This document shows, piece after piece, positions 742 to 23,362 of a DNA stretch of 64,000 bases. Positions within the stretch are counted from its first letter, which is position 1; every line of letters begins with the position of its first letter. The notes beneath the pieces are model-generated. The model saw nothing but the letters and a program-made list of their open reading frames with translations. It had not been told where the DNA came from and searched no databases. The position numbers and the translations under genes were made by a program. The DNA lies in contig MTND01000027.1 in NCBI GenBank assembly GCA_002010305.1, forward strand, positions 50,514 to 114,513, written 5' to 3'. Origin of the DNA: Archaeoglobi archaeon JdFR-42 (lineage in GTDB: Archaea; Halobacteriota; Archaeoglobi; Archaeoglobales; JdFR-42).

Positions 742-1650
742 ATGTTCAGATTCTTGAAAGAGCAGAAGATTTGGGACGTATATGGCGTGAAAGTTGGAGG
801 TCAACCCGGGATTCGACCAACAGTCATGATCGGTAGCATTTTCTATGAGGGTAGCCCTCTCGTAGAAGATGAGAAAAAAGGAAAATTCAATAAAGAAAGA
901 GCAAGAGAGCTGCTGGAAAAAGAAGAAGAGCTATCAAAATCTACAGGAAATCCTCGTATGATAGATGTTGTAGGTAGTACTTCAGAGGCTCTTGTGAGAT
1001 ATATAGATTTTGTTGCTGAGGAGACTGATTCACCTTTTCTGATCGATGGTGCTACTGTAGAGGTGAGAGTTGAGGCAACAAAACATGTTGGTGAAACAGG
1101 ACTTGCTGAACGGGCCATTTACAATTCCATCAGCCTGCATTGTAAAGAAGAGGAAGTAGAAGTCATCAAGGATGCCGGGATAGAGTCAGCTATTTTGCTC
1201 TGTTACAATCCAAAAAAACCCACGGTGGAGGGTAGATTAGAGTCATTGGATGTGATTTTGAAAATGGTTAAAGAAGCTGAGATCAAGAAACCTCTGGTTG
1301 ATCCATGTATTCTGGATTTGCCAGATCCAGGTCCAGTGGCAAAAACTGTATATCGAATTAAAAAGAGTTATGGCCTACCTACAGGTTGTGGGGCTCATAA
1401 TGCAGTGGATCAGTGGAGAAGGAGAAAAAAAATGGATTCAAGAACCTATGCTATAACTACGGCAGTGGCTAATGTTTTCCCTATCATGATGGGTGCTGAC
1501 TATGCGCTTTATGGGCCTATTGAAAAAGCTGAAGATATGTACACTGCTTGTTCTCTGGCAAACGCATATGTTGCTTATTCTATGAAAGTAGATGAAGGAA
1601 TGCCACCCGAATCGAGAGATCATCCTCTATACAGAATCTTTAAAACTTAA
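742..1650 (+). CDS. mtrH: MtrH-like pterin (H4MPT/H4F):corrinoid methyltransferase
   Basis: GVKVGGQPGIRPTVMIGSIFY, TGNPRMIDVVG and SPFLIDG match the conserved MtrH N-terminal blocks. No other mtr subunits are adjacent. Confidence 0.75.
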   Translation: MFRFLKEQKIWDVYGVKVGGQPGIRPTVMIGSIFYEGSPLVEDEKKGKFNKERARELLEKEEELSKSTGNPRMIDVVGSTSEALVRYIDFVAEETDSPFLIDGATVEVRVEATKHVGETGLAERAIYNSISLHCKEEEVEVIKDAGIESAILLCYNPKKPTVEGRLESLDVILKMVKEAEIKKPLVDPCILDLPDPGPVAKTVYRIKKSYGLPTGCGAHNAVDQWRRRKKMDSRTYAITTAVANVFPIMMGADYALYGPIEKAEDMYTACSLANAYVAYSMKVDEGMPPESRDHPLYRIFKT

Positions 1651-1654
1651 TATC

Positions 1655-1664
1655 TTTTTTATTT
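1655..1664 (+). terminator. oligo-T tract after mtrH-like stop
   Basis: A T6 run starts 5 nt after the TAA at 1648-1650, as in archaeal intrinsic termination signals. Confidence 0.35.
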
Positions 1665-1778
1665 AAAAATAGTGGTCTATAAAAAAATGAAAACAAAGTG
1701 AATTCATCATCGTTTATATTTTTTAGCTGTATTCTCTCACCTGTTATTCCTTTTTGTTCATTATCGGGAAATAACGAA

Positions 1779-2312
1779 TCATTCTTTCGAGAGTTTGATT
1801 TCCGGTGTTATCCTTTCAGTCAGACAATAATAGGCAGGGCATCTTTCTTTTGTTATTTGGAGTAATTTATCAATTTCTTCATCGTTTGCCTCAGTTTTAA
1901 CAGCTATGTTGAAAGTTATTTTATCCAGAATTGGACTATCTGATAGGCCAAAACTTCTGGACATATCCATATGAGCATCTGCAGAGATAGCCAGTTCATC
2001 CAGTGTAATCCCTTCCATAGCAGCCCATTTTGCAAAAGTAGCAGCAAAACAAGCAACAGCACCCATTATACAGTACTGAACTGGATTGGGAGCGGTTCCA
2101 CCTCCACCTAGAAAAGACGGCTCATCGGCATAAAACGTAGTCTTCCCTCCCTCAAACTGAAGTTCTGATTCAAATTGAGGCCCCGACTCACCCAGTCTCC
2201 ATCTACCTGCAATTTTCATGGTCTTTTTAGCAGATACCGAATCTTTTTCAGCCTCTTTCAGTGTATGACTAAACTTTTCCAGATCAACTCTATTTACTTT
2301 CATCTTACTCAC
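1779..2312 (-). CDS. osmC: OsmC/Ohr family peroxiredoxin-like protein (likely ATG start at 2303)
   Basis: OsmC-fold length with two conserved Cys regions (NPVQYCIMGAVAC, KERCPAYY). The track start at 2312 is GTG; an ATG lies 3 codons downstream. Confidence 0.7.
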   Translation of the reverse strand: MSKMKVNRVDLEKFSHTLKEAEKDSVSAKKTMKIAGRWRLGESGPQFESELQFEGGKTTFYADEPSFLGGGGTAPNPVQYCIMGAVACFAATFAKWAAMEGITLDELAISADAHMDMSRSFGLSDSPILDKITFNIAVKTEANDEEIDKLLQITKERCPAYYCLTERITPEIKLSKE

Positions 2313-2320
2313 TACTTTTG

Positions 2321-2328
2321 TATATTTA
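2321..2328 (-). promoter_or_regulatory. TATA-like box for osmC
   Basis: Minus strand reads TAAATATA about 20 nt upstream of the ATG at 2303, directly downstream of the palindromic repeats. Confidence 0.35.
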
Positions 2329-2338
2329 GTTATATTAT

Positions 2339-2421
2339 TTGTAAACCTCGTTTACTACTTGTCAACAAAGTTGACAATATGGCAAACTTCGTTTACTATT
2401 TGTCAGCATAGCTGACAATAT
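2339..2421. repeat. Tandem pair (41-bp period) of composite palindromic elements, subfamily I
   Basis: Unit A is 2341-2380 (GTAAAC-CTC-GTTTAC TACT TGTCAAC-AAA-GTTGACA ATAT). Unit B is 2382-2421 (GCAAAC-TTC-GTTTAC TATT TGTCAGC-ATA-GCTGACA ATAT). The units are 34/40 identical, and the P2 parts (2359-2377, 2400-2418) are perfect 8-3-8 palindromes. Confidence 0.8.
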
Positions 2422-2425
2422 CGTC

Positions 2426-2746
2426 TTATCCTATAACAACCACTTTATCCGAGACCTCTATTAGCTTCACAAGATCGTTCATAGTGGAGATTGGGCAGAG
2501 ACCTTCTTTCTGTTGTCGTATTTTAAGACATGTTCCACAAGCAAGAATTTCTCCACCAACTTCCAAGAATTTTTCCATCTCTGCCCGTACGTTAAATGTT
2601 CCTTCTTGGATGTTCTCTACCTCTACACCAGATCCTAGAAGAAATACTTTTACCTCATGTCCTGCTAATGTTGACGCAACAGCCAGTCTAAAACCATTCC
2701 ATGCTTTTTCAGGATCGTTTGTATTGATTATCAAACTTAATTTCAT
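2426..2746 (-). CDS. DsrE/DsrF-like sulfur-relay family protein
   Basis: About 106 aa with the small DsrE-like fold pattern (KLSLIINT..., FLLGSGV, ILACGTC). Its start overlaps the ArsR stop (ATGA). Confidence 0.55.
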   Translation of the reverse strand: MKLSLIINTNDPEKAWNGFRLAVASTLAGHEVKVFLLGSGVEVENIQEGTFNVRAEMEKFLEVGGEILACGTCLKIRQQKEGLCPISTMNDLVKLIEVSDKVVVIG

Positions 2747-3120
2747 CTCTTCACCTCATTTACAATTCTTTCTAATTTCCCAATGTGATCTAACAAAACC
2801 TCTCGCATTAAATCACAGGCTTTCAGAATTCTTTCATCTGAAATCCTGTATGTTACACTGCTTCCATGTCTTTTTGCCTCTAAGATTCCCTTCTCTCTCA
2901 TTACTGCAAGATGTTGCGAAACACTGGATTGAGGTAAATTCATCAGCTTGACAAGCTCGTTTACTGTCCTCTCGTTCTCTCTCAGTAGATCTATGATCTC
3001 AAGGCGCCTAGGATTTGTAAATACTTTGCATATGTTCGCATGGACTTCATAAATTTTCTGTTTTTCCATATATTTGGATATTGCGATATTTATGTATTTA
3101 AAGATTATGGTATCATGCAT
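2743..3120 (-). CDS. ArsR/SmtB family wHTH transcriptional regulator (probable start at M18, 3069)
   Basis: FTNPRRLEIIDLL...VNELVKLMNLPQSSVSQHLAVMREKGIL is the classic ArsR HTH. Confidence 0.8.
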   Translation of the reverse strand: MHDTIIFKYINIAISKYMEKQKIYEVHANICKVFTNPRRLEIIDLLRENERTVNELVKLMNLPQSSVSQHLAVMREKGILEAKRHGSSVTYRISDERILKACDLMREVLLDHIGKLERIVNEVKR

Positions 3121-3132
3121 CCCTGGAAACTC

Positions 3133-4812
3133 TCATTCGTGAGCGAAAATAGCAGTAACCTTTTCCTTGAACTGTTCAATCCTGACAAATCCAAATCTTT
3201 CAAACTGAACAACTCTATCTATTTCGTTCTTTACACTTGTTTCTACTACACCTTCTATTAGATCTCCTTCTTTATGAACTACACACGGGAGATTATCTTT
3301 TGCAGGTAACCAATGTACAATGTTCTTCCCTCTACGGACAGCATCGAGCTCATACCCAACAAATTCTGCAATGGGCGGATCTAAGGATATAATTCGAATA
3401 TTACACAGATCTTTGAGTCTGAAGATATCTCCATTTTGGAATTTCTGGATGTCAGAATAAGAAATTACAACCTCACTTTCTGTTTTTAAGATTCGCTCTC
3501 CATCCTTTTTTGGATTCAGTGGTATTCTTGCAGTTCCACCCTCGAATCCGTGTATAATAACCTTTACAGGGTCCCATACAAAAAAATATCTATTGGCCAC
3601 AGGATCTATCAGCTTCCTATTTTCTGCATACAGGTTTTTCATACTGACACTTATGTCGTTCTCTCCTACCCCAAGCTGTACAAAAAAATTCCGAATAGCC
3701 TCAGGTGTAATTCCCCTTCGTTTCAAAGCTACCAGAGTAGGAAGGCGGGGATCATCCCATCCTGTGTACTCTCCACTCTCTATTTTCCTTTTCAACACAC
3801 TGGTCGAGAATTTTCCAAATTCATGTATCTTTACCCGACCCCATAGTTTCACAAAGGGATAGTCCCATCCAAAATAATTGTAAATGTATTGCTGTCTCCT
3901 CTCAGAATCCATCAGATCTTTTCCTCTCAGAATGTGAGTTACACCGTTAATTCTGTCTTCTATAGCAGATTCAAAATCGAGGGTAGGCCAGACATTATAT
4001 TTATCTCCTACCAGAGGGTGGGGTATTTTAACTATCCTGAAGGCAACCCAATCTCGAAGGGCAGGGTCTTTATGGGCCATATCAGTTTTAACTCGTATTA
4101 CCACTTCACCCTCGTCATATTCTCCACTCAACATATTCTCCCATATTGTTAGTGTATCTTCAGTGGCACAATTTCTGTGAGAGCATGGTCTTCCAGCATC
4201 TTTAAATTTCTTAAATTTTTCCCGTGAACAAAAACATGCATAGGCCTTTCCCATTTTCATCAGCTTTTCCACATGCTCGTAATAGATCCCCATTCGCTTG
4301 GAAGCATACAAAACTCTATCTGGTTTAGCAGAAAGCCATTCGCAGTCCTTTAAATACTGCTCATAAGCCTCTAGCATAGGTCGTTTGTTTTTAGGGTCAG
4401 TGTCATCGAATCTCAGAATAAAAGTCCCATCGTAGAGGGAAACATATTCGTGGTTTATCACAATACCTCTGGCACTTCCAAGAGTAGCCGGACCATTGGG
4501 ATTGGGAGCAAACCTCATCACTACACCCTTATCTGCCATAGGAAGTGGTGGTAGTCCTCTCTCTCTCTTCTCTTTTTTCTCCTCCATCAGTTCTGGAGCA
4601 AGATTGATGAGTCTCTCTTCAATCTCCTCTCTCTTAATTGATGAGATCTCATCAATAAGTTCGTCCACCACAGATAGAATTTCTCCAATTCTGGGTTTTA
4701 ACTCTGGATTCTCTCCAAGGATTTTTCCAATAACTGCTTTTCTCTCTGGTTTACCGTATTTCAGGGCATTGTATAGTACGAATTTAAGAGCTATCTTTTT
4801 AATATCATCCAT
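3133..4812 (-). CDS. gltX: Glutamyl-tRNA synthetase, archaeal type
   Basis: 559 aa. RFAPNPNGPATLGSARG (HIGH-equivalent), FILRFDDTDP and KFSTS (KMSKS-equivalent). Confidence 0.9.
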   Translation of the reverse strand: MDDIKKIALKFVLYNALKYGKPERKAVIGKILGENPELKPRIGEILSVVDELIDEISSIKREEIEERLINLAPELMEEKKEKRERGLPPLPMADKGVVMRFAPNPNGPATLGSARGIVINHEYVSLYDGTFILRFDDTDPKNKRPMLEAYEQYLKDCEWLSAKPDRVLYASKRMGIYYEHVEKLMKMGKAYACFCSREKFKKFKDAGRPCSHRNCATEDTLTIWENMLSGEYDEGEVVIRVKTDMAHKDPALRDWVAFRIVKIPHPLVGDKYNVWPTLDFESAIEDRINGVTHILRGKDLMDSERRQQYIYNYFGWDYPFVKLWGRVKIHEFGKFSTSVLKRKIESGEYTGWDDPRLPTLVALKRRGITPEAIRNFFVQLGVGENDISVSMKNLYAENRKLIDPVANRYFFVWDPVKVIIHGFEGGTARIPLNPKKDGERILKTESEVVISYSDIQKFQNGDIFRLKDLCNIRIISLDPPIAEFVGYELDAVRRGKNIVHWLPAKDNLPCVVHKEGDLIEGVVETSVKNEIDRVVQFERFGFVRIEQFKEKVTAIFAHE

Positions 4813-5780
4813 CAGAATTCCCTCGATATTAGAAATTCTGCAAGTTCAATGAGAGTTCTTTTTGCATCAGAGTCTTCTAAGATATCCAGCTGAGAAATCC
4901 CCTTATCTACGAGCTGACGAGCCTTTTTCAAAGAGTAATCCACTGATCCGCATTCTTTCAGAATATCAACTGCATTTTGAATCTCCTCTTCTGTAGCAGA
5001 TTTTTTCCCGTAAATCTCGATATTAACTCCTCGATTCAGAGCATCGATCATTACCAGTGTTTTCTTTCCTTGGAGGATATCACTTCCCCAATCTTTCCCA
5101 AGCTTTTCTTTGCTTCCAATTAGATCCAAGACATCATCATATATTTGAAAACCCATTCCAACATATTCTCCAAATTTCCACATCTTCTCCGTTACCTTGG
5201 TACTGCAATCGTTAAGTAATGGGCCTATGGAAGATGAAGCGGCATACAATACAGCGGTTTTTTTCCTGATCATCTCCAGATAGTCCTTCTCTTTTACAAT
5301 AGGCATTTTTTCGAAGCTCATATCCATGTGCTGTCCTTCACATATTTTCACACATACATCAGCAAGCATGTGGATGGCTTGGACAACCCTTTCTGGATTG
5401 GATTTGGATTGTGTAAGAATTCTAAAAGCCTCTGCGAATAAAGTATCTCCTGCCAAGATAGCAGTGGGAACATCCCAACGGGTGTGAACCGTCTGAACTC
5501 CTCTACGGTAGAGGTCGTCGTCCATTATATCATCATGTATCAGAGTGAAATTATGGATGGTTTCAATGGCTACTGCCGCAGGGATCACAAGGTTAACATC
5601 TCCGTTTACGGCTTCAGTTGCCAGAATTGCCGTTACTGGGCGTAATCGTTTTCCCCCTGCCATTATAAGGTGTCTACTTGCTTTATAAAGTTCTTTCGGC
5701 TCTCCCATTGGAAGATATTCTTTGATAGCTTCTTCAATGATGCTGGATCTTTCTTTAATCGAGTTTTTCAGTGCTCCCAT
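4812..5780 (-). CDS. idsA: Geranylgeranyl/short-chain (E)-prenyl diphosphate synthase
   Basis: Two Asp-rich motifs, LIHDDIMDDD and FQIYDDVLD. The ATG at 5780 lies 1 nt after the idi2 stop; the track start at 5798 is an upstream extension. Confidence 0.85.
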   Translation of the reverse strand: MGALKNSIKERSSIIEEAIKEYLPMGEPKELYKASRHLIMAGGKRLRPVTAILATEAVNGDVNLVIPAAVAIETIHNFTLIHDDIMDDDLYRRGVQTVHTRWDVPTAILAGDTLFAEAFRILTQSKSNPERVVQAIHMLADVCVKICEGQHMDMSFEKMPIVKEKDYLEMIRKKTAVLYAASSSIGPLLNDCSTKVTEKMWKFGEYVGMGFQIYDDVLDLIGSKEKLGKDWGSDILQGKKTLVMIDALNRGVNIEIYGKKSATEEEIQNAVDILKECGSVDYSLKKARQLVDKGISQLDILEDSDAKRTLIELAEFLISREF

Positions 5781-5781
5781 A

Positions 5782-6867
5782 TCATCGCCCTCGCACAAAC
5801 TTTTTTATATCTACTCCTCTTTCTTCGAGAAAATCTTTCAACATTCCGCTGACTAGAAGAGACACATTTCTCAGCTGAATCAGTTCTCTACACCCGGTTA
5901 AAAACATGACTGTTTTCAATCCAAGTATAAATGTATTGAGGACCCGTTCAACTGCTTTATGATCTGTGGCTGCAGCTTTTAGAACAGGAAGTGCCACTCC
6001 CGCCATGTCTGCACCTATTGCAATTGACTTGGCCACATCTATTCCGGTTCGAATACCACCTGTTGCAATAGTCGGCAGGAACTCTGATGACTCAATGACA
6101 GTTAAAGCTGTTGGGATACCCCAATCCCAAAACTGGACTCCAAGCTCTTTCTGAATACTGTTTTCAGGAGATCTGAATACTTCCACTCCAGCCCATGATG
6201 TGCCGCCTTTTCCACCGACATCAATGGCTGAAACACCAATCTCTTGAAGTATCATAGCAGTTTCTCTGGAGATTCCAGAACCCGTCTCTTTCACGATAAC
6301 TGGTACATCAAGTATTCCAACTACTTTCTCGATGGTAGAAATACATCCTGAAGACTCTACATCCCCTTCTGGCTGTATTGCTTCTTGAAGGAAGTTTAAA
6401 TGGATGGCTACGGCATCAGCATCTATCATTCCTACTGCTTTTTCTACAAATTCTGCTCCAAATTCCCTGACCTGAGGCATTCCTACGTTGGCATATATAA
6501 AAGCATCTGGAGCATGCTCTCTCACAACAGTAAAACTCTCCTTCTGGGATGAATCTTCTATGGCAGCTCTTTGGGAACCAACTCCCATGCCAAGTCCAAG
6601 GTTCTGGATTGCAAGGGCTATGTTTCTATTTATTCTGGTTGTTTCCGGATGACCTCCTGTCATTGAGGCTACCATTATCGGAGCAGAGAATTTATGTCCA
6701 AGAAATTCTGATTCCATCTTGATGGCATCAAGATCTACTTCTGGTAAGGCATTATGAATAAATTGAATATCTTCGAATCCCGTGTAACTGGACTCCACAT
6801 TTTTTTCAAGACAAATTCTTATGTGGTCGAGTTTTCTGTTTGACGTTAGTCCGGCCTTCTTCTTCAT
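5782..6867 (-). CDS. fni: Isopentenyl-diphosphate delta-isomerase type 2 (FMN-dependent)
   Basis: TIM-barrel IDI-2 blocks: APIMVASMTGG, GVGSQRAA, VIVKETGSGIS, IDVGGKGGTSWA. Confidence 0.9.
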   Translation of the reverse strand: MKKKAGLTSNRKLDHIRICLEKNVESSYTGFEDIQFIHNALPEVDLDAIKMESEFLGHKFSAPIMVASMTGGHPETTRINRNIALAIQNLGLGMGVGSQRAAIEDSSQKESFTVVREHAPDAFIYANVGMPQVREFGAEFVEKAVGMIDADAVAIHLNFLQEAIQPEGDVESSGCISTIEKVVGILDVPVIVKETGSGISRETAMILQEIGVSAIDVGGKGGTSWAGVEVFRSPENSIQKELGVQFWDWGIPTALTVIESSEFLPTIATGGIRTGIDVAKSIAIGADMAGVALPVLKAAATDHKAVERVLNTFILGLKTVMFLTGCRELIQLRNVSLLVSGMLKDFLEERGVDIKKFVRGR

Positions 6868-6868
6868 T

Positions 6869-7636
6869 TCAATCCCTTTCTCCTGTTATAACCGTGCCAA
6901 CGTTCTCACCAGTCATAAATCTTTTTATGTTCCCTTTTTTGAGTCCATTGAATATGTTGATCTCTACTCCATATCGGGTTAGATGGAACAGGGATGATAG
7001 CTTGTTTCGCATACCACCTGTGACATCATTGTCACTTCCTCTAACATATTTTATGACATCATCATAATTTTTTGGAGTTATTCTTTCTATAAAATTGCCT
7101 GAGTCATCAAATATGCCATCAACGGAAGTAGCCATCCCGATGCGGGAAATCATGAGTTGTTTACCAAGAAATCTCGCGATTTCATCACCTGAAAGAGGAA
7201 TGTATTGATTAGACATATCATAAACCATGTCTCCATGTAGTACTGGAATAAATCCCCTTTGTAATGCCACGATGAGAAGAGTCATATCGAAAATGTGTAT
7301 CTTTCCATCTCGAGTAATAACACTTGTGAAAGGGTGTATCGGGAGTGCATATAAGTTATTCTTCCTCATCTCTTCCATAACAAACCAGTTCAATTTTCTA
7401 CATGCTATATGAGTCTCTAGAATTTTATCTCTGCTCTGAGTTTCGACAACCCGATATTTCTTTACATGAGCATGGCCAAAAGAGCCGACACCATGAATTA
7501 AAATAAAATTTTTGAAGTCCTTCAGCTCTCCTATGGTTCTCTCGAGAGATTCTTTATTAAGCGATTCAAATCCTGATTTATCAGTTAAGATACTGCCACC
7601 AATTTTTAAAATAGTATCGAGTCCAGAGTTATCCAT
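6869..7636 (-). CDS. Isopentenyl phosphate kinase (amino-acid kinase fold)
   Basis: ILKIGGSILTDK, HGVGSFGH and DVTGGM motifs. Located between idi2 and mvk. Confidence 0.8.
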   Translation of the reverse strand: MDNSGLDTILKIGGSILTDKSGFESLNKESLERTIGELKDFKNFILIHGVGSFGHAHVKKYRVVETQSRDKILETHIACRKLNWFVMEEMRKNNLYALPIHPFTSVITRDGKIHIFDMTLLIVALQRGFIPVLHGDMVYDMSNQYIPLSGDEIARFLGKQLMISRIGMATSVDGIFDDSGNFIERITPKNYDDVIKYVRGSDNDVTGGMRNKLSSLFHLTRYGVEINIFNGLKKGNIKRFMTGENVGTVITGERD

Positions 7637-17204: not shown

Positions 17205-17297
17205 GGTTTAATTAGTTAATTAAAAATCAAGTCGTTGGTTAGCAATTCATTTCTCTGTTAGAATGGCTCTAAATTTTAAAAAAGAAAATGGGTCTGA

Positions 17298-18461
17298 TTA
17301 TCTGAGCTCGTCCCACCGTCCTCTGCCTCCACCACCTCTCTGTATCAGAACCAGAATCAAGACTATCACTACGACTATCACTCCAATACCAACCCCTCCA
17401 ATTAGAAGCATAAGTTTTCTCTGTTTGGCCGCTTCTTCCTGCAATCGCTTTTGTTCCTCTTCTTTCTTCTTTTCCTCTTCTTGTTTTTTCTTGATTATGT
17501 CGTCTCTGAGTTTTATTGCTTCAGCTTTTATGGTATCAGAACCACTTATCGCTTTCTCAGCAAGCTCCTTTGCCTTGTTGTAATTACCTGCATCATACTG
17601 CTCTTGTGCATCGTCCACTTTGGATTTTATATCGTCCAGCAAGAATTTAAGAGTGGTTATAGAAGCACCTTCCCGTTCTGCCTCTAAAAGGGCTGTAGTG
17701 GCACTTTGAATTGACTCATCCGCTTTATCTATGGCATATTTTGCCATTGCTTTTTCAGCCTCTGTTGTCGCCTCACTTACTTTGTTTTCAGCCTCTTCAA
17801 TTTTTTGACTGGCAATGTCATAATCTCCAGCTTTTTTTGCGTTTACAGCCTCTTCTCTGAGATCCTTGGCCTCTTTAATGACCTCTTCAGCTTTTGTCAC
17901 ATCTGCACCATAATCTTTAGCGCCATCTATAACGATCTCAGCATTTGCAATATCGTCATCTAGGTTTGATATTTTGCTATCAAACAGTCCTGGATTAACA
18001 GCCTTAACGATTATGGGGTCAAGGAGATCTTCCTGACTATCTATCACGAATTTGACTAGTGTTATATTCTTAGTAAAAGACGCTACTGCAGGGACTTTCC
18101 CTGTCAATGTGAACTCAATACTTGAAATCCCATCATTAGTGTACCCAATTTCATCTGACAAAAAGCTTTCACTACTCTCGATAGGTCTTGAACCTCCTAT
18201 CTCTAGATTAATAGAGCCCACCCACTGGGCATTTTCCAGATCGGTAATGAAAGTAATAGGAGTTTTCCGTTTAGCGAGAACAGATGGCGGATCGGGATAT
18301 ATTGTCACTTTAACCTGTACAGTCTCACCTTCCTGATAAAAATCCTTAGATGGTATCAAAATAGTGGTCACTTTAAAATCATCAGCTTTCAGTCCATTTA
18401 CTGGAAGGACAGAAAGCAACAAAATTAACAGCAAAATACCTGTTCTAACTCTCATTTCCAT
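17298..18461 (-). CDS. Signal-peptide, coiled-coil, C-terminally TM-anchored envelope protein (unknown family)
   Basis: N-terminal RTGILLLILLLSVLPVNG, then a beta-rich ~150 aa region. Helical repeats follow with recurring AGDYD.A / AGNYNKA motifs, then a KE-rich stalk, the TM LMLLIGGVGIGVIVVVIVLILVLI and the tail QRGGGGRGRWDELR. Confidence 0.6.
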   Translation of the reverse strand: MEMRVRTGILLLILLLSVLPVNGLKADDFKVTTILIPSKDFYQEGETVQVKVTIYPDPPSVLAKRKTPITFITDLENAQWVGSINLEIGGSRPIESSESFLSDEIGYTNDGISSIEFTLTGKVPAVASFTKNITLVKFVIDSQEDLLDPIIVKAVNPGLFDSKISNLDDDIANAEIVIDGAKDYGADVTKAEEVIKEAKDLREEAVNAKKAGDYDIASQKIEEAENKVSEATTEAEKAMAKYAIDKADESIQSATTALLEAEREGASITTLKFLLDDIKSKVDDAQEQYDAGNYNKAKELAEKAISGSDTIKAEAIKLRDDIIKKKQEEEKKKEEEQKRLQEEAAKQRKLMLLIGGVGIGVIVVVIVLILVLIQRGGGGRGRWDELR

Positions 18462-18472
18462 CCCCTCCTCCT

Positions 18473-19624
18473 TTAAAATAATGGCTCAATATCTTCATCA
18501 AATAATTGCATCTTTCTCTCTTCTCTAATCTTTTCAGCCTCCTTAATACCTTCTTTCGCTTCTGAAGCTATTTTTTGAAGTTCTTTCACTCTCGGGACTT
18601 CAGTTACGTTTGCAAGAAGCACTACAGAGGCTATATACTTACTCCTTGTGGGGTAATCTCCAGCTCTGACTTCAACTCCGTTAATGTTACCTTCAAGCCA
18701 GCTCTTGGCTTTTTCAATTCCCTTTCTATCCAGATATTCGTGAGGACCTGCCACTAGAATTAAGGCTCTCTCAGCACTATGTATCTCACAAGGGATTGTT
18801 AATCGACCCAATGCAGCACGTCTAACGAGGGACGCAATCTTGGTGGCTGTATCACTCTCAAAGGCCTCTTCTTTTTCTCTGGAGAAAAAACTTCGTTTTT
18901 TCCGATTCTCTGCTATATAAGCAGCATATCCAATGGATGAAATTCCACCGCCCCTAAGGGTGTTTATGATTTCTGAGCTATCCACTACCATTTCTCCTAT
19001 CTGATCGATGTCGGATCCTTCTCCGGATCTGAAGAGGATTCCAAGCCTCCGGACGATCTCTTCGTTAATCTTTCTGTATGAGTCCCTGAGTGAGATCCCT
19101 TCATATTTCCAGGCTCCATTATCAAATAAAATTAAATTATCGGTTTCTTTAACCAGTGTCACCATTGAGCGAGCAGCATTGAGGGAGTAAAGGGAGCCTT
19201 CTTCTGGAGCTGGAAGAACTCCGAAGGCGTAAACCGGTTCAGAATACATTTTTGAAAGATAGTGCGCCAGAACAGGAGCTCCACCAGAGCCTGTTCCACC
19301 ACCCAGACCTGCAATAATTAGAAATGCATCAACATCGTGAGTTCCCATATTGTCTATTTCACTTAGAATAGTCTCTATCTCTTCCCGGGTAATTTTGGCA
19401 CCCATGGCATTATCAGTTCCCACACCATGTCCCTTGACGTAGGTCTGCCCTATGAGTATTCTATGTCTCATCGGAACATTTTTCAGCCCGAGGAGGTCTG
19501 TTCTTGCTGTGTTCACTGCTAGAGCTTGCATCTTGGTTTTATGGGTTGTTCGTTTCTCATGCTCAAGGAACAGATCCAGTATTTTGCCACCTGCTTGTCC
19601 AAAGCCAATTGCGAATACTCTCAT
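18473..19624 (-). CDS. cetZ: CetZ-like tubulin/FtsZ-superfamily GTPase
   Basis: T1 GFGQAGGK, T4 signature GLGGGTGSGGAP, VVDSSEIINTL (T7-like), acidic C-terminal tail DEDIEPLF. GGAG lies 8 nt upstream of the ATG. Confidence 0.85.
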   Translation of the reverse strand: MRVFAIGFGQAGGKILDLFLEHEKRTTHKTKMQALAVNTARTDLLGLKNVPMRHRILIGQTYVKGHGVGTDNAMGAKITREEIETILSEIDNMGTHDVDAFLIIAGLGGGTGSGGAPVLAHYLSKMYSEPVYAFGVLPAPEEGSLYSLNAARSMVTLVKETDNLILFDNGAWKYEGISLRDSYRKINEEIVRRLGILFRSGEGSDIDQIGEMVVDSSEIINTLRGGGISSIGYAAYIAENRKKRSFFSREKEEAFESDTATKIASLVRRAALGRLTIPCEIHSAERALILVAGPHEYLDRKGIEKAKSWLEGNINGVEVRAGDYPTRSKYIASVVLLANVTEVPRVKELQKIASEAKEGIKEAEKIREERKMQLFDEDIEPLF

Positions 19625-19680: not shown

Positions 19681-19731
19681 TTGACAAAGTTATAAAGCTA
19701 TGCTTTACGAATTGTTATCTGTAACTGACAA
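19681..19731. repeat. Composite palindromic element, subfamily II (order P1-P2 on + strand)
   Basis: P1 at 19690-19710 is TTATAAAGC-TAT-GCTTTACGA. P2 at 19712-19731 is TTGTTATCTGTAACTGACAA. An extra TTGACAA half-site lies at 19681-19687. Confidence 0.75.
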
Positions 19732-19771: not shown

Positions 19772-20791
19772 TCATGCAAAGTCTTCAAGGGAGAGTCCTT
19801 TAATACCCGAGAACATAACCACTACTGACAGGTATTTCGATTTAGGGATAGGAAAATCGCCCCATCGAACCTCAGCCATTGGAGCTAGATCTTCTAGAGT
19901 TGTAATACATCCAAAAAATCCGTCCATGGTTATCTCCATTGGAGGACCGGTTATGATAATTAAAACACTACGTGCAGATTTGAAATCAGATCTTACACTG
20001 AGGTTATCATAAATGGCCTCTTTCATGAGTTCCAAGACTCTAGAGGTTTTGTATCCTGCAACATCCTTTTTTCGTCTGGAGAAAATTCGATCAAGGATGC
20101 TCCGGGGGATCTTTTTCCTTGCCACTCCCACTGCTGAGATCCCTCCTTTCTTAAGAGTATTGAAGAAATCTGATGTATCAATAACAACTTCAGAATGATC
20201 TTTTCGTTTGTATTCACTTTCTCCTACCACAGCAAACAGATTCATCAAATTAACGATTTTCATATTGATTTTTTTAAAATCCTCAAAAGAGGTTGCGGGT
20301 CTACCTTCCACTATGTTTTCAAAAAGAATGAGAGTATCCACCGCCTTTCCTGTATTCTGGATTTTGGAAGGAATTTTTTTAATAAAGAAATCGGGAGTAT
20401 CGATAGAAGGTACAACACCTATGGAAAACACAGGCTCTTCAAAAATCTCTTTCAATTTTTTAGCCAGTTTTTCTGCGATTATTGTTCCAAAATCACTTTC
20501 AAGGCTTAAAATTATCAAAAACGCATCGATGGGCTCCCTCTCTTCTGATAAAATATTTACAAGGGATATTAGGTCCTTTTTTTCGAGGAGATCTGTTTCC
20601 GATATGAATCCAGAAGGTATATGAAATTTCCTCTCTACAGGTACATTTTTAAGGCTTCTGAGGTGATTAATGTCGTTGTCTATCAGAAAACATCTGAACA
20701 AAGTATTCTCAGGACTTCTGATCCCCTCTTTTTGAAGGAGGTCGGCTATATTGCACCCAGCTCCACCACATCCTATGGCAAGAACTCTCAT
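19772..20791 (-). CDS. Divergent tubulin/CetZ-like paralog lacking the GGGTGSG nucleotide-binding signature
   Basis: Aligns without gaps to the neighbour around DAFLII. GLGGGTGSGGAPVLA is replaced by SLESDFGTIIAEKLA. T1-like GCGGAGCN and VIDTSDFFNTLKKGGISAVG are retained. Confidence 0.7.
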   Translation of the reverse strand: MRVLAIGCGGAGCNIADLLQKEGIRSPENTLFRCFLIDNDINHLRSLKNVPVERKFHIPSGFISETDLLEKKDLISLVNILSEEREPIDAFLIILSLESDFGTIIAEKLAKKLKEIFEEPVFSIGVVPSIDTPDFFIKKIPSKIQNTGKAVDTLILFENIVEGRPATSFEDFKKINMKIVNLMNLFAVVGESEYKRKDHSEVVIDTSDFFNTLKKGGISAVGVARKKIPRSILDRIFSRRKKDVAGYKTSRVLELMKEAIYDNLSVRSDFKSARSVLIIITGPPMEITMDGFFGCITTLEDLAPMAEVRWGDFPIPKSKYLSVVVMFSGIKGLSLEDFA

Positions 20792-20815: not shown

Positions 20816-20857
20816 TTGTCAATATAAACTGACATTTTGTAAAGCTATACTTTACAA
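20816..20857. repeat. Composite palindromic element, subfamily II (order P2-P1 on + strand)
   Basis: P2 at 20816-20834 is TTGTCAATATAAACTGACA. P1 at 20837-20857 is TTGTAAAGC-TAT-ACTTTACAA. Confidence 0.75.
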
Positions 20858-22137: not shown

Positions 22138-22178
22138 TTGTAAAGCTATGATTTACAATTGTTAATTTACATTGACAG
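22138..22178. repeat. Composite palindromic element, subfamily II (order P1-P2), filling the convergent apgM/cobT-like spacer
   Basis: P1 at 22138-22158 is TTGTAAAGC-TAT-GATTTACAA. P2 at 22159-22178 is TTGTTAATTTACATTGACAG. Positions 22152-22177 match the reverse complement of the 23322 copy at 25/26. Confidence 0.8.
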
Positions 22179-23321: not shown

Positions 23322-23362
23322 TTGTCAATGTAAATTGACAATTGTAAAGCTATGCTTCATGA
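23322..23362. repeat. Composite palindromic element, subfamily II (order P2-P1)
   Basis: P2 at 23322-23341 is TTGTCAATGTAAATTGACAA. P1 at 23342-23362 is TTGTAAAGC-TAT-GCTTCATGA (right arm degenerate). Confidence 0.8.

Follow-up and report, generated by a model that had tools for sequence, protein, structure and literature searches.

A conserved gene pair of a CetZ1-type tubulin and a predicted membrane-anchored envelope protein in Archaeoglobales and other Halobacteriota

By which route do filaments of the tubulin-superfamily protein CetZ reach the membrane, and how does CetZ reshape archaeal cells that are enclosed by a surface layer (S-layer) only? This question was addressed by a gene pair located in a 64,000-nucleotide (nt) stretch of DNA (the window) from Archaeoglobi archaeon JdFR-42 (assembly GCA_002010305.1, contig MTND01000027.1, positions 50,514 to 114,513 of the forward strand). 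On the minus strand of the window, a CetZ1-type tubulin gene (cetZ, 18473..19624) was directly followed by a gene (17298..18461) for a predicted envelope protein, referred to here as the partner. An original prediction, made from the letters of the DNA, had proposed that these two genes formed a module linking a tubulin filament to an extracellular layer across the membrane; the two genes, for a CetZ1-type tubulin and for a bitopic envelope protein, turned out to form a genuine module that is widely conserved by synteny. The pair was read, at a probability of roughly 0.6, as an operon in which a cytoskeletal GTPase of CetZ1 type is encoded together with an envelope partner dedicated to it, and this was judged the best reading because of three features taken together, namely conserved cytoplasmic residues in the partner, coupling specific to CetZ1, and shared presence or absence of the two genes across families.

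The window cetZ encoded a 383-amino acid (aa) tubulin-superfamily GTPase of CetZ1 type, as indicated by its open reading frame (ORF) and by matches to Pfam (CetZ_C, 8e-69; Tubulin, 4e-30) and to the PDB. Its best PDB match was Haloferax volcanii CetZ1 (4B46; 3e-126, 52% identity), and the other PDB matches were CetZ2 (4B45; 1e-75) and Methanosaeta CetZ (3ZID; 8e-22). Because the CetZ1 match was far ahead of the latter two, the window cetZ is, by sequence similarity, a member of the 'Halobacteria-like' CetZ1-type group, which was recorded in Archaeoglobales and Methanomicrobiales by Brown and Duggin (PMC9856176). The nucleotide-binding G-box was intact (GLGGGTGSGG) and invariant in the alignment with CetZ1 orthologues, and the C-terminal peptide read LFDEDIEPLF. 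The window CetZ and H. volcanii CetZ1 (HVO_2204) resembled each other in their domains and in a hydrophobic-acidic C-terminal peptide (tail DEDIEPLF in the window and DELESLF in H. volcanii), and the H. volcanii cetZ1 likewise preceded a partner homologue (ADE03000.2/D4GVD6, annotated as hypothetical). The window differed from H. volcanii in two respects: (i) its host was an uncultured subsurface member of Archaeoglobales, and (ii) a CetZ gene with a degenerate GTP loop was located just upstream of cetZ, an arrangement not seen in relatives. The host genome assembly was 99.6% complete and represented a family of its own in the order to which Archaeoglobus fulgidus belongs.

The cetZ stop (18473) and the next ATG (18461) were confirmed on the sequence to lie on the same minus strand 11 nt apart, as originally predicted. 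The intergenic spacer AGGAGGAGGGG (18462..18472, minus strand; read directly) was composed of the Shine-Dalgarno sequence for the downstream gene; an independent promoter or terminator between the genes, which the original prediction had named as an observation that would speak against it, has no room here because all 11 nt are taken up by this Shine-Dalgarno sequence. An alternative ATG located 6 nt downstream (18455; MRVRTG..., 385 aa) was used in one public gene call and was better spaced from the Shine-Dalgarno sequence than the ATG at 18461. A bacterial-type scan, which relies on bacterial signals not applicable to archaea, detected nothing resembling a terminator between the two genes on the minus strand, and the promoters and terminators called by this inapplicable model were in no excess over shuffled sequences. 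Archaeal transcription signals were read by eye: (i) a promoter-like element GTAAAGCATAGCTTTATAA (19690..19708, minus strand), a palindrome containing the TATA-like TTTATAA, was located 66 nt upstream of the cetZ ATG, and (ii) a T-rich stretch TTTTCTTTTTT (17263..17297, minus strand; read directly) began 13 nt past the partner stop. Oligo-T is a known termination signal in archaea, and transcription of the operon likely ends at this stretch; past it, a trpB-like gene followed on the plus strand, in convergent orientation.

The window sequence was found only in DNA metagenome runs (subsurface and marine), with no RNA run carrying it, and co-transcription was examined in the orthologous H. volcanii pair, using one stranded RNA-sequencing run. 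The same-strand depth was 50-235x from just upstream of cetZ1 through the partner end and 3-19x on either side, and at the junction of the two genes it stayed above background. This profile is consistent with cetZ1 and the partner gene being carried on one transcript, coverage in itself being no proof of a single RNA molecule. In the same run, 25 of about 119 fragments ended at one point, about 105 nt ahead of the partner stop (place 1648 of the locus), which may reflect RNA processing or an artefact of the library.

The partner (387 aa, or 385 aa if translation starts at 18455) was predicted from its ORF, its AlphaFold2 (AF2) model, and its hydropathy to be a bitopic type-I envelope protein. 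The AF2 model, built from a 34-sequence family alignment, had a mean predicted local distance difference test score (pLDDT) of 91.6 and a predicted template modelling score (pTM) of 0.75; together with hydropathy and composition, it bore out the signal peptide, beta domain, Lys/Glu stretch, single transmembrane (TM) helix, and 14-aa tail that had been described from the letters. The resulting layout was as follows: (i) a signal peptide at residues 1-23, with the hydrophobic N-terminus GILLLILLLSVLPVNG and an AF2 helix at residues 2-16, (ii) an immunoglobulin (Ig)-like beta-sandwich at residues 29-155 of the AF2 model, (iii) a helical bundle at residues 157-318 containing helices 157-183, 189-210, 214-263, and 269-290, (iv) a last helix at residues 294-376 that spanned the K/E stretch (319-348) and the TM helix (349-373), and (v) a predicted cytoplasmic tail QRGGGGRGRWDELR at residues 374-387, which was disordered in AF2 and ended in WDELR. 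From this layout, we infer a topology with the ectodomain outside the cell and the 14-residue tail in the cytoplasm. The term 'coiled-coil' did not hold for this protein, since AF2 modelled helical hairpin bundles plus one long helix and not one long coiled coil. The recurring helical motif held in part: 'G(D/N)Y(D/N)xA' occurred twice and was a family feature (the 34-sequence consensus of the helical region reading Y..G.Y..A, twice), but the internal repeat was not significant (BLAST E 0.6).

The partner matched no family in Pfam or NCBIfam, these searches gave no PGF-CTERM match, and it matched no generic S-layer family, a match that the original prediction had named as speaking against it if the family occurred at unrelated loci. 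The ESM Atlas neighbours of its beta-sandwich were CARDB/DUF11-type Ig folds, and a Foldseek comparison of the model with the PDB yielded only generic Ig-like or pilin sandwiches; the best Foldseek match was pT26-6p of the Thermococcus plasmid pT26-2 (PDB 2WB7; E 1e-6, 312 aligned columns), but the TM-score was just 0.17 at 15% identity, and this match gave no functional lead. Elsewhere in the host genome (contig C27, 1695-3632, plus strand), a gene for a 645-aa secreted paralogue harbored three tandem copies of the partner beta-sandwich. These copies were 66-74% identical to residues 19-160 of the window partner and were joined by PTPTP linkers, and the paralogue ended in an unrelated C-terminal domain and had no TM helix and no Pfam match. 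The tandem copies in this secreted protein show the partner beta-sandwich to be an extracellular module in its own right.

The gene-neighbourhood survey that the original prediction had called for displayed conserved adjacency of cetZ and the partner gene in Archaeoglobales, Methanomicrobiales, ANME-1, Syntrophoarchaeum, and many Halobacteria. Within Archaeoglobales, a partner homologue was found in 38 of 41 genomes (44 of 46 by profile search), and in 16 of 40 relatives, which all came from six genera, a CetZ1-type gene had it as its immediate downstream neighbour. Five other genera of this order had a flavoprotein gene (Pfam Flavoprotein) directly after cetZ and the partner gene at another locus; elsewhere, this flavoprotein gene followed the partner gene. 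Outside Archaeoglobales, the partner gene came directly after a CetZ1-type gene in all 48 genomes from seven families, six of which were fully sampled (47 genomes); named contigs identified these families as Methanomicrobiales. A short form of the partner (260-290 aa) was found in the same position in 37 of 39 genomes (the remaining two ended at a contig edge), and the lineages having it included Halobacteria, ANME-1/Methanophagales, Syntrophoarchaeum, and others. Named contigs, which were gathered by a CetZ alignment search and checked for the partner by tblastn, presented the cetZ1-partner pair in Methanomicrobiales, Syntrophoarchaeum, ANME-1, and many Halobacteria, and it was also seen on metagenome contigs. 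At the named loci, haloarchaeal CetZ paralogues other than CetZ1 had no partner gene beside them.

These data bear on the possibility that the adjacency has no functional meaning and that a fast-evolving surface-protein gene came to lie behind cetZ by chance. Surface proteins are common, the partner belongs to no known family, and synteny was lost in several lineages; against this, a homologous gene (hhalign 99.7% between the long, window-type form and the short form) occupied the same place even between classes, the spacing from cetZ1 to the partner gene ranging from -41 to +31 nt, and it co-occurred with CetZ1 across families, so that chance placement appeared extremely improbable.

Co-occurrence was assessed in one 300-genome sample of the phylum, which was searched with profiles of both the long and the short form and with the 383-aa CetZ; the resulting figures are counts and not statistics, since related genomes are not independent. 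The partner and CetZ1 were jointly present or jointly missing in 28 of about 31 families: both were present in about 20 families, and neither was found in 8 families comprising 95 genomes.

An exhaustive search for the partner over 1.84 billion representative proteins returned only 59 homologues at the threshold of E 1e-3, and their public names were 'hypothetical' or 'coiled-coil domain-containing'. Across 34 sequences that were 19-27% identical to the window query, the invariant columns were P124, D384, E385, and L386 only, and W383 was conserved in at least 90%. The W-D-E-L-R codons plus stop (17298..17315, minus strand) thereby specify the C-terminal motif of the family, its sole near-invariant element besides P124. 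This C-terminus took the form [W/F]DEL[K/R] in Archaeoglobales and WDELG in a subgroup of about 370 aa; the end of the window partner (...RWDELR) fitted the family form aromatic-D/E-E/K/R-L-(G/K/R), and the other family hallmark, a conserved (L/V)xG..P strand in the beta-sandwich, was present in the window protein as well. The WDEL tail was retained in those Archaeoglobales in which the partner gene was unlinked from cetZ, and the tail motif was absent in both sequences inspected from one lineage that had a partner-like gene and no CetZ1.

The original prediction had assigned docking on the acidic CetZ tail to the basic Gly/Arg part of the partner tail, and this part of it was not supported. 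The basic stretch before the motif was not conserved (GGGGRGR in the window and KRRK, RGRRG, or KKKT elsewhere) and fits the ordinary positive-inside rule. Simple charge pairing of the two tails is unlikely because the conserved partner peptide [W/F]DEL[K/R/G] is itself acidic and hydrophobic, and docking of a basic on an acidic tail was rejected as a candidate, there being no consistent charge pattern between the tails.

The motif WDEL[K/R/G] might instead serve in sorting, processing, or quality control, as PGF-CTERM does with archaeosortase, and not be a docking site at all. It forms the very end of the protein and is preceded by a TM helix and basic residues, a layout like that of C-terminal sorting signals, and PGF-CTERM sorting is used in Archaeoglobi, Methanomicrobia, and Halobacteria; however, a WDEL C-terminus was carried by a single ORF of the 6228 in the host genome, which argues against a general sorting signal, such signals being normally common to many substrates. 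The motif would moreover be cytoplasmic by the positive-inside rule, and no gene for a dedicated processing enzyme was linked to the partner in the examined neighbourhoods, so that a sorting role was considered highly improbable.

The best PDB match of the partner family profile was SlaB (8QOX chain B, E 6e-7), which in Sulfolobus acidocaldarius is an S-layer stalk composed of a signal peptide, Ig-like domains, a long coiled coil, and a C-terminal TM helix (PMC10903991). SlaB and the partner shared a common build, with signal peptide, Ig-like beta-sandwich, helical stalk, single C-terminal TM helix, and very short cytoplasmic end. The match covered positions 252-386 of the partner profile versus 326-473 of SlaB, with the N-terminal domain not significant, and because it was confined to the helical and TM part, the likeness was read as shared architecture, homology not being established. 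The two proteins differed in the following: (i) one beta-sandwich in the partner versus three in SlaB, (ii) helical hairpins in the partner model (a monomer) versus a 132-residue trimeric coiled coil in SlaB, and (iii) a conserved cytoplasmic motif and a tubulin partner, neither of which SlaB has. The gene order in Sulfolobus is slaA then slaB, and the partner gene of A. fulgidus similarly follows a large surface glycoprotein gene; to our knowledge, Sulfolobales contain no CetZ.

Two further settings of partner genes were recorded. Directly upstream of the A. fulgidus WDELR gene was a gene for a PGF-CTERM surface glycoprotein of 1036 aa that is a candidate S-layer protein, and downstream of it lay the gene for a partner paralogue ending in ...DKW; at this locus (1503-6999, minus strand) and at similar loci in three Archaeoglobaceae genera, the WDEL gene stood between a large PGF-CTERM glycoprotein gene and a full-length paralogue, whose C-terminus in these genera was a conserved ...R(R/K)DKW. 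The partner-like genes of the one family in which no CetZ was detected, at loci 2536-3342 (plus strand) and 1976-2806 (minus strand), were not beside any tubulin gene, and their tails (…PPRKKL and …DTRAKL) had no aromatic-acidic motif.

Several observations weigh against a dedicated partnership of CetZ1 and the partner. The pairing is not obligatory, as witnessed by unlinked genes in Archaeoglobaceae and by CetZ1-only lineages: the partner gene was away from cetZ in 21 of 40 Archaeoglobales relatives, about half of the sampled Archaeoglobaceae being unlinked, and CetZ1 occurred without a detectable partner in one haloarchaeal family (9/9 genomes with CetZ1 versus 0/9 with the partner), in one genus (11/11 versus 0/11), and in one single genome. 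The named loci suggest that these CetZ1-only groups are Natrialbaceae and Halorubrum, whose loci had other genes directly after cetZ1. Conversely, a partner-like gene without CetZ1 was found in one family (5 genomes, 75-91% complete). The tail motif differed among lineages (WDELK/R/G, YDKLG as at the end of the H. volcanii partner, WDKLG, RGIY, and PPLG) and lacked clear charge complementarity to the CetZ tail, and the SlaB match, which spanned the coiled coil and TM helix only, may be compositional. Finally, H. volcanii CetZ1 was reported to bind liposomes by itself in vitro (bioRxiv 10.1101/2024.04.08.588506), from which it follows that an anchor may be unnecessary.

Part of these observations would suit a partner that is an envelope or S-layer stalk co-regulated with cetZ for shape remodelling, never touching CetZ, with its tail binding another factor of the cytoplasm or membrane. 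Such a stalk would account for the SlaB-like architecture, for the A. fulgidus-type genera, where a large PGF-CTERM surface glycoprotein gene and not cetZ stands in front of the partner gene, for the one lineage retaining the partner gene without CetZ1, and for the haloarchaea retaining CetZ1 without the partner; but it would leave aside that the presence or absence of the partner tracks CetZ1 family by family, that adjacency is specific to the CetZ1-type paralogue, that the highest conservation falls on a few cytoplasm-facing residues, and that the tail was not retained in the two inspected sequences of the CetZ1-less lineage. A stalk without contact to CetZ was on this balance thought unlikely, and the operon of CetZ1 and a dedicated envelope partner was retained as the preferred reading.

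Under the dedicated partnership, the partner would be exported by a Sec-type signal peptide and would stay anchored by its C-terminal TM helix, with the Ig-like beta-sandwich displayed outside the cell on the helical stalk; the W-D-E-L-R peptide would act as a short linear motif docking on membrane-proximal CetZ1 filaments or on a filament-bound factor, and through this contact, the filament's location inside the cell would be tied to the outer envelope or S-layer when cell shape is controlled. We infer that the ectodomain contacts the S-layer. Direct docking of the partner tail on CetZ1 would be the most economical mechanism, and it is a tentative proposal with somewhat less than even chances. 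Mutation of the C-terminal LESLF of CetZ1 abolished rod formation, and the CetZ1 tail was reported to contact the neighbouring subunit (both bioRxiv 10.1101/2024.04.08.588506). The [W/F]DEL of the partner resembled FDEDI/FDEGI, a part of the CetZ tail in the lineages concerned, and any meaning of this likeness would be speculation. The fullest version, in which the partner would be a transmembrane coupler whose tail inserts into the CetZ site for the tail of the neighbouring subunit and whose ectodomain holds the S-layer, is doubtful.

The proposed arrangement was compared with two known kinds of filament-membrane linkage. The bacterial RodZ, which works with MreB, is like the partner a bitopic protein dedicated to one shape-determining filament; it connects this filament with the envelope, and its gene is often found together with shape genes. 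RodZ binds MreB via a folded cytoplasmic helix-turn-helix domain, whereas the cytoplasmic part of the partner amounts to 10-16 residues, and the two systems involve an actin-like and a tubulin-like filament, respectively, with no sequence relationship. The FtsZ tethers (ZipA, FtsA, and SepF, as well as haloarchaeal CdpA, PMC12126565) connect a tubulin-superfamily filament to the membrane via a partner and a short conserved terminal peptide. In the FtsZ systems, this peptide belongs to FtsZ and the folded cytoplasmic receptor is supplied by the tether, whereas in the CetZ partner the terminal peptide is nearly the sole cytoplasmic part and the bulk is outside; the polarity of recognition would thus be reversed.

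The CetZ gene upstream of cetZ1 (19772..20791, minus strand) encoded a second, short CetZ-family protein (339 aa; Pfam CetZ_C, 4e-28) and was located 147 nt from cetZ1. Its GTP-binding loop GGGTGSG was replaced by LESDFGT, part of the T3 region was deleted, and the C-terminal tail was missing; judged by these changes, it is probably a pseudo-GTPase. Orthologues of the short CetZ were found in all 40 Archaeoglobales relatives, with none adjoining cetZ1, and a tandem cetZ-cetZ arrangement was rejected as a conserved feature because the short CetZ was unlinked in every one of them; in the sister genus, 274 nt were left downstream of the short CetZ on the contig, and they contained no cetZ1 start. 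Pairing of the DKW-tailed partner paralogue with this second CetZ was likewise rejected, the paralogue being present in three genera only and the second CetZ in all relatives. In a Hydrothermarchaeota metagenome-assembled genome, a distant CetZ-like gene (2501-3643) was followed 9 nt later by a gene for a 338-aa protein with no signal peptide and no TM helix, which ended in ...LEDLLEDISPL, resembling a CetZ-type C-terminal peptide.

The 19-nt palindromic element GTAAAGYATAGCTTTAYAA was presented in four copies in the window versus 0 expected (19690-19708, 20837-20855, 22138-22156, and 23342-23360, all on the minus strand), and its 15-nt core had about 20 copies genome-wide versus 0 for a control pattern. 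It preceded both cetZ genes (the copy at 20837-20855 being the short CetZ gene's own promoter-like palindrome) and a DBI_PRT-like gene, and none was located before the partner gene. The copy at 22138 was placed between two convergent gene ends. The palindrome could be a strong consensus of the transcription factor B recognition element (BRE) and TATA box or a shared operator.

A 2026 paper on CetZ1 refers the envelope links to 'yet unknown components and interactions' (PMC13644373), and a study of CetZ neighbourhoods made no mention of the partner gene and analysed non-haloarchaeal cetZ only outside the Halobacteria-like branch (PMC9856176). No literature on the partner gene was found, including by accession numbers and by HVO_2203 (a tag presumed from the gene numbering), and the statement of the original prediction that it knew of no described CetZ membrane tether of this form agrees with the literature, in which no such description was found. 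Four results are new here: how linked and unlinked genes are distributed in Archaeoglobales, the likeness of the partner build to SlaB, the restriction of the tail to one ORF of the genome, and the co-occurrence at family level.

The gene pair represents a concrete candidate link between CetZ filaments and the envelope, conserved from Archaeoglobales and methanogens to haloarchaea, and the presence of an orthologue in the genetically tractable H. volcanii makes this link directly testable there. If the link fails, the partner family would still be a widespread, unannotated SlaB-like envelope protein of Halobacteriota. If it is true, no transmembrane partner of any CetZ would have been described earlier, and a cytoskeletal filament would, as in few other cases, be read via a tail of a few residues on a protein that is otherwise largely extracellular. 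In the fullest version, a single protein of 387 residues would mechanically join a tubulin-like filament to the archaeal cell wall, in a manner comparable to an integrin- or RodZ-type linkage.

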